From the NCBI RefSeq assembly GCF_030384885.1, contig NZ_CP128613.1: a stretch of DNA of 64,000 nucleotides, one strand, 5' to 3'. Made by a program: the position numbers and the translations under genes. Below are positions 6,183 through 31,206 of this stretch, piece by piece. The notes under the pieces are model-generated. The model searched no databases and was not told where the DNA came from. It saw only the letters and a program-made list of their open reading frames with translations. How positions within the stretch are numbered: the first letter of the stretch is position 1; each line of letters begins with the position of its first letter. This DNA is from Escherichia coli. Lineage in GTDB: Bacteria; Pseudomonadota; Gammaproteobacteria; Enterobacterales; Enterobacteriaceae.

Positions 6183-6698
6183 TCACTTCACTGTGGAAAA
6201 TGAGGAAATATTATTTTTTTTGCGCTTCGTAATTAATGGTTATAAGGTCGGCCAGAAACCCTTCTAATGCAAGCGATGACGTTTTTTTATGTGTCTGAAT
6301 TTGCACTGTGTCACAATTCCAAATGTTTATTAACAACTCACCTAATAACGACGCTGATGCAGCGTGAATACTGGGTTTTACGGTATTTTCCTCATGTTCA
6401 TCAGTTTCATTTAAGCAAGGGAGTCTTCTCAATTCCTGATGAAAGAGCCATCTAAAAAGAGGATCTTAATAAACCTATTAAGAATGAGATGGAACAAACT
6501 GGATGTTTTACTTATGAAACTGTTTCACTCCTTTACTTAATTTATAGAGTTACCTTCCGCCTTTTGAAAATACACAACGGCCATTTTTTGCACCTAGATA
6601 CAGATTTTCTGCGCTGTATGGCATTGATTTGCTGCTAATCCTGTGGATTGCACTAGGTTTAAGTGGTCGAGATCACATTTCCTTGCTCATCCCCGCAA

Positions 6699-6728
6699 CT
6701 CCTCCCTGCCTAATCCCCCGCAGGATGA
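6699..6728 (+). promoter_or_regulatory. Candidate MalT boxes of the malPQ promoter
   Basis: GGATGA at 6723-6728 and the reverse complement of GGAGGA at 6699-6704, matching the GGA(T/G)GA MalT box, 70-100 bp upstream of malP. Confidence 0.5.
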
Positions 6729-6775
6729 GGAAGGTCAACATCGAGCCTGGCAAACTAGCGATAACGTTGTGTTGA

Positions 6776-9193
<2,418 letters not shown>

Positions 9194-9202
9194 GGAAGCT
9201 CG

Positions 9203-11287
9203 ATGGAAAGCAAACGTCTGGATAATGCCGCGCTGGCGGCGGGGATCAGCCCCAATTACATCAATGCCCACGGTAAACCGCAGTCGATTAGCGCCGAAAC
9301 CAAACGGCGTTTGCTTGACGCGATGCATCAACGTACCGCCACGAAAGTGGCGGTAACGCCAGTCCCGAATGTCATGGTCTATACCAGCGGCAAAAAAATG
9401 CCGATGGCGGTGGAGGGCAGCGGCGAATATAGCTGGCTGCTGACCACCGAAGAAGGAACGCAGTACAAAGGCCATGTAACGGGGGGCAAAGCGTTCAATT
9501 TACCGACGAAGTTGCCGGAAGGTTATCACACGTTGACACTCACCCAGGACGACCAGCGCGCGCATTGCCGGGTGATTGTCGCCCCGAAACGCTGTTACGA
9601 ACCGCAGGCGTTGCTGAATAAACAAAAGCTGTGGGGCGCCTGCGTCCAGCTTTATACGCTGCGATCGGAAAAAAACTGGGGTATTGGGGATTTTGGCGAT
9701 CTCAAAGTGATGCTGGTGGATGTGGCAAAACGTGGCGGGGCTTTCATCGGTCTGAACCCGATTCATGCGCTCTATCCGGCAAATCCGGAAAGTGCCAGTC
9801 CGTATAGCCCGTCTTCTCGTCGCTGGCTAAATGTGGTTTATATCGACGTTAACGCCGTCGAAGATTTCCATCTTAGCGAAGAGGCTCAGGCCTGGTGGCA
9901 GTTACCGACCACGCAACAGACGCTGCAACAGGCACGGGATGCCGACTGGGTCGATTACTCCACCGTCACTGCGCTGAAAATGACAGCATTGCGGATGGCG
10001 TGGAAAGGTTTTGCGCAACGTGATGATGAGCAGATGGCCGCGTTTCGCCAGTTTGTTGCAGAGCAGGGCGACAGCCTGTTCTGGCAGGCGGCGTTTGACG
10101 CGTTACATGCCCAGCAAGTGAAAGAAGACGAAATGCGCTGGGGCTGGCCTGCATGGCCAGAGATGTATCAGAACGTGGATTCACCAGAAGTGCGTCAGTT
10201 CTGCGAAGAACATCGTGATGACGTCGATTTTTATCTCTGGTTGCAGTGGCTGGCTTACAGCCAGTTTGCCGCCTGCTGGGAGATAAGCCAGGGCCATGAA
10301 ATGCCGATTGGCTTGTACCGTGATCTGGCGGTTGGCGTAGCAGAGGGTGGAGCAGAAACCTGGTGCGACCGGGAGTTGTATTGCCTGAAAGCGTCGGTGG
10401 GCGCGCCGCCGGATATCCTCGGCCCGTTGGGGCAGAACTGGGGATTGCCGCCGATGGATCCGCATATCATCACCGCGCGTGCCTATGAACCGTTTATCGA
10501 GCTGTTGCGTGCCAATATGCAAAACTGCGGCGCGTTGCGAATTGACCATGTGATGTCGATGCTGCGTTTGTGGTGGATACCGTATGGCGAGACGGCAGAT
10601 CAGGGCGCGTATGTTCACTATCCGGTAGATGATCTGCTCTCGATTCTGGCACTCGAAAGTAAGCGCCATCGCTGCATGGTGATTGGTGAAGACCTCGGCA
10701 CTGTACCGGTAGAGATTGTCGGTAAACTGCGCAGCAGCGGTGTGTACTCCTACAAAGTGCTCTATTTCGAAAGCGACCACGAGAAGACATTCCGCGCGCC
10801 GAAAGCGTATCCGGAGCAGTCGATGGCGGTTGCGGCGACACACGACCTGCCTACACTGCGTGGCTACTGGGAGAGCGGGGATTTAACACTGGGCAAAACG
10901 CTGGGGCTGTACCCGGATGAAGTGGTATTGCGCGGTCTGTATCAGGATCGCGAACTGGCGAAGCAAGGGTTACTGGATGCACTGCATAAACATGGTTGCC
11001 TGCCAAAACGTGCGGGGCATAAGGCATCGTTAATGTCGATGACGCCGATGCTTAATCGTGGTTTGCAACGTTATATCGCTGATAGTAACAGTGCTCTGTT
11101 AGGGCTTCAGCCAGAAGACTGGCTGGATATGGCCGAACCGGTAAATATTCCCGGAACCAGTTACCAGTATAAAAACTGGCGGCGCAAGCTTTCCGCAACG
11201 CTTGAGACGATGTTTGCTGATGATGGCGTGAACAAGTTGCTGAAGGATTTGGACAGACGGCGCAGAGCGGCTGCGAAGAAGCAGTAG
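9203..11287 (+). CDS. malQ: 4-alpha-glucanotransferase (amylomaltase)
   Basis: 694 aa; MESKRLDNAALAAGISPNYINAHGKPQ...; 9 bp downstream of the malP stop. Confidence 0.97.
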   Translation: MESKRLDNAALAAGISPNYINAHGKPQSISAETKRRLLDAMHQRTATKVAVTPVPNVMVYTSGKKMPMAVEGSGEYSWLLTTEEGTQYKGHVTGGKAFNLPTKLPEGYHTLTLTQDDQRAHCRVIVAPKRCYEPQALLNKQKLWGACVQLYTLRSEKNWGIGDFGDLKVMLVDVAKRGGAFIGLNPIHALYPANPESASPYSPSSRRWLNVVYIDVNAVEDFHLSEEAQAWWQLPTTQQTLQQARDADWVDYSTVTALKMTALRMAWKGFAQRDDEQMAAFRQFVAEQGDSLFWQAAFDALHAQQVKEDEMRWGWPAWPEMYQNVDSPEVRQFCEEHRDDVDFYLWLQWLAYSQFAACWEISQGHEMPIGLYRDLAVGVAEGGAETWCDRELYCLKASVGAPPDILGPLGQNWGLPPMDPHIITARAYEPFIELLRANMQNCGALRIDHVMSMLRLWWIPYGETADQGAYVHYPVDDLLSILALESKRHRCMVIGEDLGTVPVEIVGKLRSSGVYSYKVLYFESDHEKTFRAPKAYPEQSMAVAATHDLPTLRGYWESGDLTLGKTLGLYPDEVVLRGLYQDRELAKQGLLDALHKHGCLPKRAGHKASLMSMTPMLNRGLQRYIADSNSALLGLQPEDWLDMAEPVNIPGTSYQYKNWRRKLSATLETMFADDGVNKLLKDLDRRRRAAAKKQ

Positions 11288-11299
11288 AGAGCGGTTGAT

Positions 11300-11320
11300 G
11301 CCGGATGCGATGCATCCGGC
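11300..11320. terminator. Bidirectional hairpin between convergent malQ and gntT
   Basis: GCCGGATGC-gat-GCATCCGGC, a 9 bp stem with 3 nt loop. Confidence 0.6.
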
Positions 11321-22624: not shown

Positions 22625-24693
<2,069 letters not shown>

Positions 24694-24700
24694 ATAAAAC

Positions 24701-24730
24701 GGGAGGAGAAGGAGCCTCCTGTTTTATTTT
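24701..24730 (+). terminator. Probable intrinsic terminator after envZ
   Basis: AGGAG...CTCCT inverted repeat followed by GTTTTATTTT. Confidence 0.5.
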
Positions 24731-24856
24731 GTGCACTCAGTATCTACTGAATGAATACGGTCTCAGACATCGGCACCATACGAAGTAAAGTGTACTGTAA
24801 GCTGATTGCAGGCTAGCGTATCCTGATTAGTAAAAGCACACTAAAGGAATAGCTTG

Positions 24857-26140
24857 ATGCAACTTACCAACGAAGAACAAGTACAGATTGCTCGTATAAA
24901 AGAAAAAATCCCACGCATTGCCGCACTGGATCCTGAATGTAAGTTATTCGGTTCTGAAGGTTGGAAATATCAATGGCCGAAGCCTGCCAGCGAGGCGGAA
25001 ATAGCTTCCTGGGAGAAAAAACATAGCGTCACTTTGCCACGGGAATATCGAATTTTTCTTCGCTATATCGCTAATGGCGGTCCGGCACATGCCTACGGTC
25101 TTGAATCTTTAGGCGGTACAGATATTTATGGCGATATAACAAAAGAAAGCCCTGTACCGCTTTATATGACGCAGCAGGATGTTGATGTGTTGAATGCTGG
25201 CCGTACAGAAGATGATGAAGAATATAGTTTTTTTGACGGCGCATTGACCATTCTCACCCTGGGATGTACTTATGATATTTGCCTGGTGGTGACGGGGCAG
25301 TATCGCGGAAGGTTAATGCTGACTGATGGTGATGAAGATTATCCGTTTGATTTTATATATGATAAAAATTTCCTCAACTGGTATGAACGCTGGCTGGACG
25401 ATTTTATTGCTGGCATGAGTATGAAGGGTTTCGATAGAAGTTTGCCAGGAACGCAAATTCAACTGCGTGAGTGGTTTTTAACTGAGAAAATCCCGGATTT
25501 ACGTAGATCCATTTTATTCTCGCTATGCCGTTTTCCACAGATAGAACCCGAAACTTTTGCCCTTTGGGAACATGTTTGCCGTACAGAGAATGATAAAGAA
25601 TTGTGTGAAGAGGCATTCATAAGATTACGCCAAAAAAAAGTTTCTTGTGCTGCAGATATTTTTCGACTCTATTTTGCAATGTCAGATGAATTACGTGATA
25701 TTGCTATTAAAGATCTCCGTTTTGCCTGTAGAGATAGTGTGGTGAATATTGAGGATTATATTCATTCACTGTTAATAATAATGCCTGAACTTGACGATGA
25801 CACTCTATCCTCAGCTGTCTTTGCTATACGAGAAACAGAGTATAATAAATATGATACTTTTCTGCCGCTTCTCGAACGTATCACTGATGACCGTCAGCAA
25901 ACATTATTGTGGGCGATGAGTAAGGCGCCTGATTTCAATGAAAGCCGAGGATTCGTTGAGTTGGTATTACCGCTTTTTGCATCATCAAAGATGGAGAATG
26001 TAAGGAAGGCTATTTTGTTGCTCATTGAAGTTAAAGATAATCGTATTCCACCATTGGTTGATGAAGCTGCAACTCGTTTCCCTGAACTGACCATTTTACG
26101 AGAAAACTACTATCTCAGGACGTGGGGACATAAGCCATAA
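24857..26140 (+). CDS. Accessory protein: SMI1/KNR4 (SUKH-1)-like N-terminal domain plus about 230 aa helical C-terminal extension
   Basis: N-terminus carries the SMI1/KNR4 signature (EAEIASWEKKHSVTLPREYRIFLRYIANGG ... DYPFDFIYDKNFLNWYERWLDDF). ATG at 24857 has RBS AAGGA 9 bp upstream; the track used TTG at 24854. AT-richer than flanks by eye; no K-12 counterpart remembered at this locus. Confidence 0.7.
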   Translation: MQLTNEEQVQIARIKEKIPRIAALDPECKLFGSEGWKYQWPKPASEAEIASWEKKHSVTLPREYRIFLRYIANGGPAHAYGLESLGGTDIYGDITKESPVPLYMTQQDVDVLNAGRTEDDEEYSFFDGALTILTLGCTYDICLVVTGQYRGRLMLTDGDEDYPFDFIYDKNFLNWYERWLDDFIAGMSMKGFDRSLPGTQIQLREWFLTEKIPDLRRSILFSLCRFPQIEPETFALWEHVCRTENDKELCEEAFIRLRQKKVSCAADIFRLYFAMSDELRDIAIKDLRFACRDSVVNIEDYIHSLLIIMPELDDDTLSSAVFAIRETEYNKYDTFLPLLERITDDRQQTLLWAMSKAPDFNESRGFVELVLPLFASSKMENVRKAILLLIEVKDNRIPPLVDEAATRFPELTILRENYYLRTWGHKP

Positions 26141-26177
26141 ATTAATGGTTCAGAAATGATCTAACGCGGAGAAAAAT

Positions 26178-26708
26178 ATGATCAGGGAACATATTCAGCA
26201 AGCGATAAATAATAGGTTAGCATTTGATGGCCCATTCAATGTTGTTCCTGAACCTGCAAGCACTGCGTTTGATAGCCGGATCCCGACATTGAAAAACGGT
26301 GTCTGGCAGAAGGCCAGCCCTATGTTGCAGGCGCGTTTTGCACATTGTGGACGTTGGTTAAGCGCTACACATGGAAGCTGGCTAAGTATAAGTGACATGG
26401 AAACGCTTTGGCAGGAACACATAGAAGATACGTTTCTTGATGAAATCAAAATGAATGCTGTAGCTTCAAGTGATAATTGGGATAACCATGCCTTGGGACT
26501 ATTTCGTTCTCATCGCCTGTCACTTTTTGCCGGTAGTGATTACAGTTATGAAATGGTTTTTCTCCTTTGGCTAGATAGTACCGTTGAGCCAGAGGTCTGG
26601 GTTTATGACTGCAATGGGGAATCACGTTATAAAGATCTTAATGATTACCTGAATGCATATATTAATGATGACGTAAGCGCCTGTGAGCGCTCTTGGCGAG
26701 TAGAATGA
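26178..26708 (+). CDS. Accessory small protein (176 aa), uncharacterised, possibly SUKH/immunity-like
   Basis: C-terminal segment EPEVWVYDCNGESRYKDLNDYLNAYIND resembles the C-terminal block of SUKH-type proteins; RBS GGAG 7 bp upstream; same strand as and 37 bp after the preceding ORF. Confidence 0.55.
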   Translation: MIREHIQQAINNRLAFDGPFNVVPEPASTAFDSRIPTLKNGVWQKASPMLQARFAHCGRWLSATHGSWLSISDMETLWQEHIEDTFLDEIKMNAVASSDNWDNHALGLFRSHRLSLFAGSDYSYEMVFLLWLDSTVEPEVWVYDCNGESRYKDLNDYLNAYINDDVSACERSWRVE

Positions 26709-27331
26709 ATAGCCCCCCTTGCCCCTTTGATCCACAAACCGCACATTACCTCGGCACAGTGCAAATCCACTACACCTCAACCACCTTCAACGCTGCCGTT
26801 AAGCATTATACCTATCACATTAAAAAGCGTTTTAAAGGGGTTAAATGGGGAATTGGTACCGCTGGCTTATTGGCTATATTGCCCATGATCCCACAATGGT
26901 TGAAACCTTCTCATGACTTTAAACTCAACGCAATCAGTACGTTAATTCTTCTATTAATGTTGCCACTCCTCTTATCAATGTTCCTGTTAATCAGCAGAAG
27001 AATTAACGATTTTAAGTCAAAAACAAAGCAAGTTACTTTTACGAAACCCGTGCGTTATGCGTTTTATTTCGAGGGGATTGTTTTTTATGAATCTCATCAG
27101 CAGGGCATACTTCGCTGGGAAGATTTTTATGGCATTGAGTATGAAGAAGATTATTTGTGGCTTTTTCTGCATTTACCGAAGAGTTTTCCCAGAGAAGCGA
27201 CGAAAGCGTTTTGCGATATTTTCATTCCCACCAGTGCGATAAAAGCGCAGCCTGAACTGGATACGTTTTTTCGTGAAACACGCCACTCGCTGGATTATCT
27301 GTTTGTCCCGTTTAATTCTGACAGAAAATAA
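26705..27331 (+). CDS. Accessory membrane protein, YcxB-like (two TM helices plus C-terminal bPH-like domain)
   Basis: ATG at 26705 overlaps the upstream TGA stop (ATGA); the track used TTG at 26693. Two hydrophobic helices (WGIGTAGLLAILPMIPQWL; ISTLILLLMLPLLLSMFLLI) then ...ILRWEDFYGIEYEEDYLWLFLHLPKSF..., typical of YcxB-like proteins. Confidence 0.6.
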   Translation: MNSPPCPFDPQTAHYLGTVQIHYTSTTFNAAVKHYTYHIKKRFKGVKWGIGTAGLLAILPMIPQWLKPSHDFKLNAISTLILLLMLPLLLSMFLLISRRINDFKSKTKQVTFTKPVRYAFYFEGIVFYESHQQGILRWEDFYGIEYEEDYLWLFLHLPKSFPREATKAFCDIFIPTSAIKAQPELDTFFRETRHSLDYLFVPFNSDRK

Positions 27332-27334
27332 CAT

Positions 27335-27362
27335 ATCCCCCGTATCTGGTGAAACGGGGGAT
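27335..27362 (-). terminator. Hairpin terminator downstream of pckA, at the island boundary
   Basis: ATCCCCCGT-atctggtgaa-ACGGGGGAT, a 9 bp stem followed on the minus strand by ATGTTATTTTCT. Confidence 0.6.
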
Positions 27363-27383
27363 TTCGTCGCTTAACTTATCGGA

Positions 27384-29384: not shown

Positions 29385-31109
29385 ATGGATAACGTTGAAC
29401 TTTCACCCGCAACACGCTGGGGGATGATTGTTACCGGATTACTTCAGGGTCTAGTTTGCTACCTACTGATCGCCTGGCTTTCCGGAAAAAATCACAGTTG
29501 GATTGTTTATGGCGTGCCTGCGACCGTCGCGTTTTCATCCGTTTTACTCTTCTCCGTGATCTCCTTTAAACAGAAGCGCCTTTGGGGATGGCTGGCGCTG
29601 GTGTTTATTGCCACGCTGGGAATGAGCGGCTGGCTGAAGTGGCAAACTGATGGCATGAACCCCTGGAGAGCTGAAAAGGCGCTTTGGGATTTTGGTTGCT
29701 ATCTGCTGCTGATGGCAATGTTGTTGCTACCGTGGATACAACAAAGCCTTCGCATCCGCAATGACAGTAGCCGCTATCGCTATTTTTACCAGTCAGTATG
29801 GCATAACGTACTTATATTACTGGTGATTTTTCTCGCCAATGGCCTGACGTGGCTGGTACTTTTACTGTGGGGCGAGTTGTTTAAACTTGTTGGCATCACG
29901 TTTTTCAAAACGCTCTTTTTTGCAACCGACTGGTTTATTTATCTCACGTTAGGTCTGGTTACCGCACTGGCGGTGATCCTCGCGCGTACACAGTCACGTT
30001 TAATCGACTCTATTCAAAAGTTGTTCACGTTAATCGCCACGGGGTTGCTGCCGTTAGTATCATTGCTAACCCTGATGTTTATCATCACCCTGCCGTTTAC
30101 GGGCCTGAGCGCGATTTCTCGCCACATCTCCGCCGCCGGGTTGCTGTTGACGCTGGCCTTTTTGCAATTGATTTTAATGGCTATTGTCCGCAATCCGCAA
30201 AAAGCGTCACTTCCCTGGACGGGGCCGTTGCGTTGCCTGATTAAAACCGCTCTGCTGGCTGCTCCGCTGTATGTGTTCGTCGCCGCCTGGGCGTTATGGC
30301 TGCGGGTCGCTCAGTACGGCTGGACTGTCGACCGCTTGCAGGGCGCGCTGGCGGTGCTGGTGTTACTGATATGGTCGCTGGGGTATTTTGTCAGTATCGT
30401 CTGGCGTAAAGGGCAAAACCCTCTTGTTCTTCAGGGCAAAGTGAACCTTGCGGTTTCGTTATTGGTGTTGGTAATACTGGTGCTTCTTAATTCGCCGGTG
30501 CTGGATAGTATGCGCATTAGTGTGAACAGTCATATGGCACGTTATCAGAGCGGCAAGAACACGCCAGATCAGGTAAGTCTCTACATGCTCGAACAGAACG
30601 GTCGCTATGGACGTGCGGCGCTTGAGTCGCTGAAAAGCGATGCCGAGTATATGAAAGACCCGAAACGCGCACGGGATCTGCTGATGACGTTAGATGGAGA
30701 GCAACATCTTCAGGAACAGGTATCGGAAAAAGTATTAGCCGAAAATGTGTTAATTGCCCCAGGCTCTGGCAAACCGGATACGGCATTCTGGTCGGCCTTA
30801 ATCCAGGATCGCTATAACGTGATGACCTGTATTGAAAAAGACGCCTGCGTACTGGTCGAGCAAGATCTGAATAGTGATGGTCAGGTGGAGCGGATCCTGT
30901 TTGCTTTTAATGATGACAGAGTCATTGTCTATGGCTTTGACCCGGCCAGAAAAGAATGGGACGCGCTTGATATGAGTTTACTTCCGCGCCAAATAACGAA
31001 AGAAAAATTACTCGCTGCTGCGAAGGATGGAAAACTGGGGACGAAGCCTAAAGCATGGTGTGATCTGACGGTAGATGGTGAAACGCTGGAAATAAACCTA
31101 AGTAAGTGA
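29385..31109 (+). CDS. yhgE: Inner membrane protein YhgE
   Basis: 574 aa polytopic ORF; [32 protein letters not shown]... Confidence 0.88.
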
Positions 31110-31177
31110 CAATGCGTATTTGATTTTTTATCGGATACGACGCTTTATCTTACCAACAATAACTTGCGAATTATTGC

Positions 31178-31206
31178 GTAGGCCTGGTAAGCGCAGCGCA
31201 TCAGGC
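31178..31206. repeat. REP element between yhgE and hslO
   Basis: Reverse complement reads GCCTGATGCGCTGCGCTTACCAGGCCTAC, REP-like; a second hairpin TCCGGCAGAG...CTGCCGGA follows at about 31222-31245. Confidence 0.6.

Follow-up and report, generated by a model that had tools for sequence, protein, structure and literature searches.

The analysed window is a 64,000-nucleotide stretch of Escherichia coli DNA (contig NZ_CP128613.1 of RefSeq assembly GCF_030384885.1). Over the part compared, it is 100% identical to the chromosome of E. coli strain 2013C-4282 (NZ_CP027579.1). The gene under study, hereinafter designated the SUKH-HEAT gene, lies on the plus strand at 24857-26140 and is the first of three genes in a small islet between envZ and pckA. 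The reading frame, which a previous sequence-only reading had placed at these positions, is borne out by both an open reading frame (ORF) scan of the window and RefSeq. Specifically, RefSeq starts the gene at ATG 24857 and gives a 427-residue product (WP_001177605.1, ‘SMI1/KNR4 family protein’), while the ORF scan reports the same frame as 24854-26140 with a TTG start. The sequence AAGGA is located 9 nt 5' of the ATG. The gene is flanked by the two halves of a conserved block, feoAB - yhgF(tex) - greB - ompR - envZ on one side and pckA - yhgE - hslO on the other. Directly 5' of it are envZ and the envZ terminator, in agreement with the earlier remark that no toxin gene precedes it. The features of the locus are as follows.

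24692-24729, plus strand: envZ intrinsic terminator hairpin (inverted repeat, with a terminator-like site at 24704-24720); K-12 homology stops at 24725 and the left edge of the islet follows directly

24726-27382, no strand assigned: low-GC accessory islet of 2657 bp with three co-directional genes, replacing 43 bp of K-12 (BLAST against K-12)

24857-26140, plus strand: coding sequence of the SUKH-1 and HEAT-repeat protein, 427 residues (RefSeq, ORF scan, Pfam and AlphaFold2)

24869-24928, plus strand: predicted family-specific N-terminal helix, residues 5-24, in which R13, I14 and K17 are nearly invariant (AlphaFold2 secondary structure and alignment)

24929-25426, plus strand: SUKH-1 (SMI1/KNR4) α+β domain, residues ~25-190, ending in an invariant F-L-x-W-Y-E-R-W-L-D helix that leads into the repeats

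25454-26125, plus strand: predicted HEAT/ARM-like solenoid, residues 200-423, 14 helices

26178-26708, plus strand: ORF2, 176 residues, putative orphan of an Rhs-linked immunity family (contexts of homologues)

26693-27331, plus strand: ORF3, 212 residues from TTG (190 residues from the RefSeq start, GTG 26759), putative membrane protein (hydrophobic segment)

27335-27362, plus strand: closing hairpin of the islet, GC-rich and immediately ahead of the stop of the convergent pckA (inverted repeat); K-12 homology resumes at 27383

The GC fraction of the islet is 0.417, compared with 0.54 and 0.50 in the flanks. Its borders carry no direct repeats, tRNA-like anchors or integrase. Of 5426 complete E. 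coli genomes, 18 contain the complete islet, and Escherichia albertii has it as well. In the 18 E. coli genomes the SUKH-HEAT frame is intact and its DNA is 98.8-100% conserved. Compared with K-12 in 1-kb steps, positions 1-49900 of the window are ~91-99.7% identical, mostly 94-98%, which places the strain in a divergent lineage of Escherichia. The rarity of the islet may for that reason partly reflect how rare this lineage is, rather than recent transfer. The orthologue of E. albertii NBRC 107761 (10001-11290 of its locus) is 93% identical at the nucleotide level and is interrupted by a single premature stop at codon 212, with the rest of the gene in frame. The stop falls exactly on the boundary between the SUKH and HEAT parts. 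A 211-residue protein of E. albertii TW07627 in AFDB, with 91% identity, fits the same truncated product.

The junction of envZ and pckA is a hotspot for cassettes. At this position, other E. coli or Shigella strains have a RelE/ParE-NadS pair, or a 346-residue fusion of a 145-residue HEAT-like module to an ORF3-like membrane protein (strain A30), or a 142-residue HEAT_2-like ORF together with divergent alleles of ORF2 (66% identical) and ORF3. The 142-residue ORF has no sequence similarity to the SUKH-HEAT protein and is thus not a fragment of it.

Pfam detects SMI1_KNR4 at residues 43-152 of the SUKH-HEAT protein (independent E-value 2.7e-6) and SUKH_6 at residues 46-169 (E 3.4e-5). The SUKH-1 domain proposed from the sequence for the N-terminal part therefore stands, and the two motifs quoted in its support, WEKKHSVTLPREYRIFLRYIANGG and DYPFDFIYDKNFLNWYERWL, are both present in the translation. 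The C-terminal half has no Pfam match, even at E<=10. The AlphaFold2 model, built on 24 homologues, has a mean predicted local distance difference test score (pLDDT) of 89.8 and a predicted template-modelling score (pTM) of 0.82. The model contains a long N-terminal helix (residues 5-24), an α+β domain up to residue ~190 and 14 helices from residue 200 to 423. The α+β domain shows the arrangement of the SUKH fold, namely N-terminal helices, a β-sheet and a C-terminal helix. The 14 helices form tandem helical hairpins stacked as a solenoid and, in structural comparison, resemble known HEAT/ARM proteins. The Leu/Glu/Arg-rich, HEAT/ARM-like helical extension described from the sequence is thus recovered in the model, and the C-terminal half does contain 13.2% Leu, 9.6% Glu and 8.8% Arg. 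No transmembrane or signal segment is called. In the model, the FLxWYERWLD helix connects the SUKH-1 domain with a HEAT/ARM solenoid of seven hairpins. The protein is cytoplasmic and non-catalytic, and both of its folds are recognised as protein-binding.

The SUKH-HEAT architecture is a large and widespread bacterial family. In a word-indexed search, 24 close relatives, some with precomputed HEAT_2 matches, were retrieved from Enterobacteria, Saccharibacillus, Capnocytophaga and Flavobacterium; full-length homologues are 39-80% identical. A profile of 431 positions, searched against 1.84 billion representatives, retrieved 7045 proteins at E<=0.001 and 518 clusters (50% identity) at E<=1e-30. 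Most of the best 150 matches cover nearly the whole profile and measure 420-480 residues; the matches span many phyla. Full-length structural matches in AFDB50, with template-modelling (TM) scores of 0.65-0.83, include proteins from Paenibacillus, Aneurinibacillus, Providencia, Proteus, Actinomadura, Kitasatospora, Vibrio, Clostridium, Chitinophaga, Myroides, Snodgrassella, Deinococcus, Gimesia and Sorangium. Even relatives with only 20-25% identity reach full-length TM scores of 0.7-0.83; taken with the pTM of the model, these scores indicate that the two domains are held in a fixed arrangement that is conserved.

Among 133 family members analysed with Pfam, SMI1_KNR4 is detected in 126 and HEAT_2 in 46 at E<=0.001 (HEAT_2 in 74 at E<=0.1), and HEAT_PBS in six. 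The matches are to SUKH- and HEAT-type domains only; no enzymatic or effector domain is found in any of the 133. Longer members have extra repeats or, in one case, a transmembrane tail. The invariant or nearly invariant residues cluster at G147, G151-R152 and the F172-L173-x-W175-Y176-E177-x-W179-L180-D181 helix, in addition to R13, I14 and K17. These residues of the N-terminal helix and the FLxWYERWLD block stay the same from phylum to phylum, while the repeat domain is poorly conserved. The width of the family and the conservation of the junction between its domains indicate that the fusion is an old, fixed two-domain unit and no local oddity. It is not unusual, contrary to the sequence-only reading, which had found the extension unusual for a plain immunity protein, and RefSeq already labels the gene SMI1/KNR4. 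No relatives were found in 2.9 million viral contigs, and the phage collection yielded four Listeria records only, all matching the SUKH part.

The gene is thus already annotated at the family level and its domain calls are ordinary; the combination joins two listed immunity modules. Modestly new is the recognition of a large, fixed two-domain SUKH-HEAT family: a search of a literature library found no paper describing or characterising the architecture, and the 2011 SUKH paper does not mention HEAT. Also modestly new is the three-gene orphan immunity-type islet at the envZ/pckA junction of a divergent Escherichia lineage.

The strongest functional clue for the islet is the toxin-linked family of ORF2. 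ORF2 itself has no Pfam match above threshold and no NCBIfam or PADLOC match. In Pectobacterium parmentieri, a homologue with 56% identity lies 20 bp 3' of a gene for a 1423-residue PAAR-Rhs protein in an hcp-vgrG-DcrB-PAAR/Rhs cluster, and the Rhs core of this protein stops ~126 residues short of its C-terminus. The homologue stands where a cognate immunity gene of an Rhs toxin classically lies, so that for ORF2 an immunity-type relative beside a toxin is found elsewhere. A metagenomic homologue (57% identical) is part of an array of ~17 co-directional small genes headed by a tyrosine recombinase, which includes DUF4284, DUF4304, Imm19, SMI1_KNR4, Imm21, Imm32 and DUF4948. Recombinase-headed arrays of small genes are the layout described as rAID, or recombinase-associated acquired interbacterial defence (PMC12247911). 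A homologue on a Sphingomonas plasmid is located ~900 bp 3' of an RHS-core fragment. These three contexts indicate that ORF2 is an orphan member of an immunity family.

ORF3 has one strong hydrophobic segment at residues ~75-104, and its homologues are confined to Enterobacteriaceae (E. coli, E. albertii, Salmonella and relatives). Its Pfam, PADLOC and NCBIfam matches are weak. For ORF2 and ORF3 together, Pfam gives sub-threshold DUF3884, MASE8 and YcxB only.

The genomic surroundings of the SUKH-HEAT family were examined in ~100 homologue contexts. Enterobacterial copies are solitary insertions between housekeeping genes, at differing sites. An E. coli paralogue with 39% identity (P0015; 8001-9275 of its locus) is a single gene inserted between yoaA and yoaB and is present in 2 of 5426 complete E. 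coli genomes (R32_14_1F and 2020CK-00188), both of which also carry the envZ islet. In Klebsiella aerogenes a copy lies 3' of an aldo-keto reductase gene, and a Superficieibacter copy lies at the same place with extra genes. The 170-residue gene that follows the Superficieibacter copy is not a relative of ORF2, as a comparison of the two indicates. Across 80 genome loci of the family no neighbour is conserved and no constant partner gene is seen. A DUF7638/DUF7639 gene does recur in two phyla, directly 5' of the SUKH-HEAT gene in Saccharibacillus (7026-7961 of the locus) and two genes 5' in Capnocytophaga (6492-7511).

Pfam analysis of 104 same-strand neighbours at positions -1 and +1 lists no toxin family among its matches. 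The 150 neighbours at ±2 and ±3 include four SMI1_KNR4, two to four SUKH_6, two SUFU and three Ank_2 matches, a modest sign of immunity-type company in which any enrichment over the genomic background is presumptive. The Capnocytophaga homologue lies in a co-directional array of 17-20 small unannotated genes, beside a gene with a weak Imm-NTF2 match. On Serratia marcescens plasmid pAM01 (4875-8342 of the locus), a 208-residue relative with 54% identity over residues 1-185 ends just after WYERWLDD, indicating that its HEAT part has been lost. This relative is found within an orphan array of a contact-dependent inhibition (CDI) system that contains DUF637 CdiA fragments, a polymorphic toxin type 17 gene with two Imm31 genes, DUF596 genes and a deaminase. 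Mobile elements seem to have rearranged this array heavily. The copies on other plasmids stand alone, close to integrases, restriction or restriction-modification fragments or a PIN-domain gene, and one homologue adjoins McrBC, IS66 and an SdpI/SdpR-like pair.

In nine Paenibacillus and Cohnella genomes, a 169-residue endonuclease V (EndoV)-like gene is located 20 bp 5' of the SUKH-HEAT gene, and the flanks beyond this pair differ. The EndoV-like proteins match Pfam Endonuclease_5 (best E 6.9e-10), keep the D-E-D-K catalytic motifs and are 76-89% identical among the nine. The pair could be a nuclease and its inhibitor, or merely local synteny. Copies in E. coli, Klebsiella and Bacteroidota have no EndoV-like neighbour.

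On balance, we consider it probable, with moderate confidence, that the SUKH-HEAT protein is a cytoplasmic toxin binder and the first gene product of a horizontally acquired, orphan interbacterial immunity islet at envZ/pckA. SUKH and HEAT repeats are both listed among the immunity-protein domains of polymorphic toxin systems (PMC3113570, PMC3482391), and orphan SUKH proteins have been shown to neutralise a type VI secretion system (T6SS) effector by high-affinity interaction (PMC12247911). The SUKH-HEAT protein would bind and block the toxic C-terminal domain of a polymorphic toxin injected by a competitor (Rhs/T6SS, CDI or similar). A second surface for binding, extending that of the SUKH domain, would come from the HEAT arm, in which case both domains would act as one clamp. 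The accessory and foreign nature of the locus is supported by its low GC, its presence in few genomes, the alternative cassettes at the same site and the E. albertii nonsense allele. In its sequence features, the islet has the makeup of a putative orphan or acquired immunity locus, namely immunity-family company, absence of a toxin gene, accessory distribution and foreign composition.

The proposed role can be compared with known systems. SUKH-1 (PF09346) immunity proteins, such as Bacillus subtilis YobK (PDB 2prv) and the Bacteroidales I2 orphans, are likewise cytoplasmic and have no enzyme domain, and the SUKH-HEAT protein is also an orphan beside immunity-family genes. It differs from them in being approximately three times longer, with the family-specific N-terminal helix and a 225-residue HEAT solenoid, and in that no toxin adjoins any member examined. 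The Bacteroidales I2 proteins have two SUKH domains, whereas a SUKH domain is combined with HEAT here (PMC12247911). In the polymorphic-toxin survey of 2012 (Zhang et al.), Imm-HEAT is listed among the types of immunity protein, with links to Ntox34 and Tox-REase-7. Imm-HEAT proteins and E. coli YibA (PDB 1oyz) share HEAT repeats, a listed immunity type, with the SUKH-HEAT protein, but the latter has no sequence-level HEAT match and its repeats are fused to a SUKH domain. In K-12, yibA is presumably located 3' of rhsA. The islet resembles the recombinase-led immunity arrays in its co-directional small immunity-family genes of foreign composition and in having no toxin gene, and the ORF2 family is found inside one such array. 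Unlike these arrays, the islet has three genes only, no recombinase among its three ORFs, no array head formed by one and no repeats, and its site is an intergenic junction of the Escherichia chromosome, not a mobile element of Bacteroidales. Eukaryotic Knr4/Smi1 and FBXO3 differ in their partner domains (disordered tails in Knr4, an F-box and an Ig-like domain in FBXO3) and in their role as a hub or an E3 substrate adaptor, with sequence identity of ~10-12%.

Several observations weigh against an immunity role. No recognisable toxin is found at position -1 in the ~100 contexts, and no cognate toxin-linked SUKH-HEAT homologue is present among those sampled. The check proposed in the earlier reading, to look in other genomes for the protein 3' of a toxin C-terminal domain, gave no such case in these contexts. 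Most neighbours are housekeeping or unrelated genes. The giant ORFs 5' of Paenibacillus and Chitinophaga homologues, considered as possible polymorphic toxins, are actually pilin-like with a class B sortase, sorted by the type IX secretion system, or NACHT-like. Other large neighbours at -1 are likewise not toxins; they are DhaK, ribosomal protein S1, a β-lactamase-like protein and a RING-domain protein. On pAM01, an IS21 IstB-like fragment and a group II intron with a reverse transcriptase gene flank the relative and stand between it and the toxin genes. The evidence by association is guilt by neighbourhood. In addition, members of the Paenibacillus clade (442 residues) are 70-87% identical across Paenibacillus, Brevibacillus and Cohnella, and this, together with the unusually invariant motif, is explained by one conserved partner no less well than by an arms race. 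Because no cognate toxin adjoins any family member examined, immunity is a proposed role only, and we infer both toxin binding and the identity of the toxin.

The sequence-only reading had left two options, an orphan immunity gene or a SUKH domain repurposed as a sensor and fused to an effector or scaffold. The absence of effector domains from the family does not support a sensor fused to an effector, as the C-terminal half contains a repeat scaffold only. Orphan immunity is better supported, by association only, namely through the ORF2 family and the pAM01 array. In a different explanation, the protein is no anti-toxin but a regulator or adaptor whose conserved partner is endogenous, for example an inhibitor or chaperone of the cell's own nuclease or other enzyme, which has moved as a solitary accessory gene. 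The lack of a cognate toxin in ~100 contexts, the high identity within the Paenibacillus/Brevibacillus/Cohnella clade, the nine genes positioned 20 bp 3' of a conserved EndoV-like gene with its D-E-D-K motifs and the invariance of the FLxWYERWLD block and N-terminal helix residues across phyla would all suit such a protein. On the other hand, its distribution inside a species is extremely scattered (the two paralogues occur in 18 and 2 of 5426 E. coli genomes), the composition is foreign, E. albertii has a nonsense allele, the E. coli, Klebsiella and Bacteroidota copies lack an EndoV-like neighbour and immunity-family genes lie nearby. Overall we regard an endogenous partner as unlikely, although it is the main rival of the immunity reading.

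A sensor or decoy of anti-phage or anti-mobile-element defence, residing at a defence hotspot, appears improbable. Such a role would agree with the RelE/ParE-NadS toxin-antitoxin pair at envZ/pckA in other strains, the homologue beside McrBC and IS66 and the plasmid copies near integrases, restriction-modification fragments and a PIN-domain gene. It is opposed by database searches with the three islet proteins: PADLOC-DB 2.0 gives no match for the SUKH-HEAT protein or ORF2 and none that is meaningful for ORF3 (best PycTM, E 0.021), and PHROGs give no significant match. The absence of relatives from the viral contigs, of an effector domain from the protein and its 133 relatives and of a conserved partner gene points the same way. 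NCBIfam gives nothing useful for the three proteins. That the gene is an ORF called in error, or a remnant that is decaying or has no function, is very improbable. The stop at codon 212 in the E. albertii type strain and the Serratia plasmid copy cut off after the SUKH domain are what decay would produce, but the 427-codon frame is intact and its DNA almost unchanged in the 18 E. coli genomes, full-length homologues exist at 39-80% identity, the AlphaFold2 model is very confident and, among the 518 clusters, the best 150 matches are mostly near full length.

Tentatively, and with rather low probability, we also consider that the SUKH-HEAT family might be no toxin's cognate partner but a mobile ‘universal orphan’. 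It might be a broad-spectrum cytoplasmic clamp on a conserved feature common to many injected toxins, or a dedicated regulator of an endogenous nuclease, at which the conserved pair of EndoV-like and SUKH-HEAT genes in Paenibacillus hints. Either form would account for the strong conservation of hundreds of clusters that nearly always occur alone.

If the orphan immunity reading is correct, E. albertii and a divergent lineage of Escherichia possess, at a junction of core genes that is prone to recombination, stand-alone protection from the Rhs-type toxins of competitors. The gene would then be a tractable E. coli representative of the large SUKH-HEAT family, whose target toxin could be searched for. 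In practice the gain is modest: the gene is a clear candidate for assays of interbacterial competition, and its product can be named more aptly than ‘SMI1/KNR4 family protein’ or ‘hypothetical protein’; no new category of system is implied.

Elsewhere in the window, the segments 11001-11311 and 31001-31194 have no K-12 counterpart in the alignment and are small indels or replacements relative to that strain. Within the islet, the sequence FDPQTAHYLGT, encoded in frame 5' of the RefSeq start of ORF3, is kept in strain A30, and homologues of ORF3 are 205-227 residues long. On both grounds, ORF3 may really start at TTG 26693, where it overlaps the stop of ORF2.

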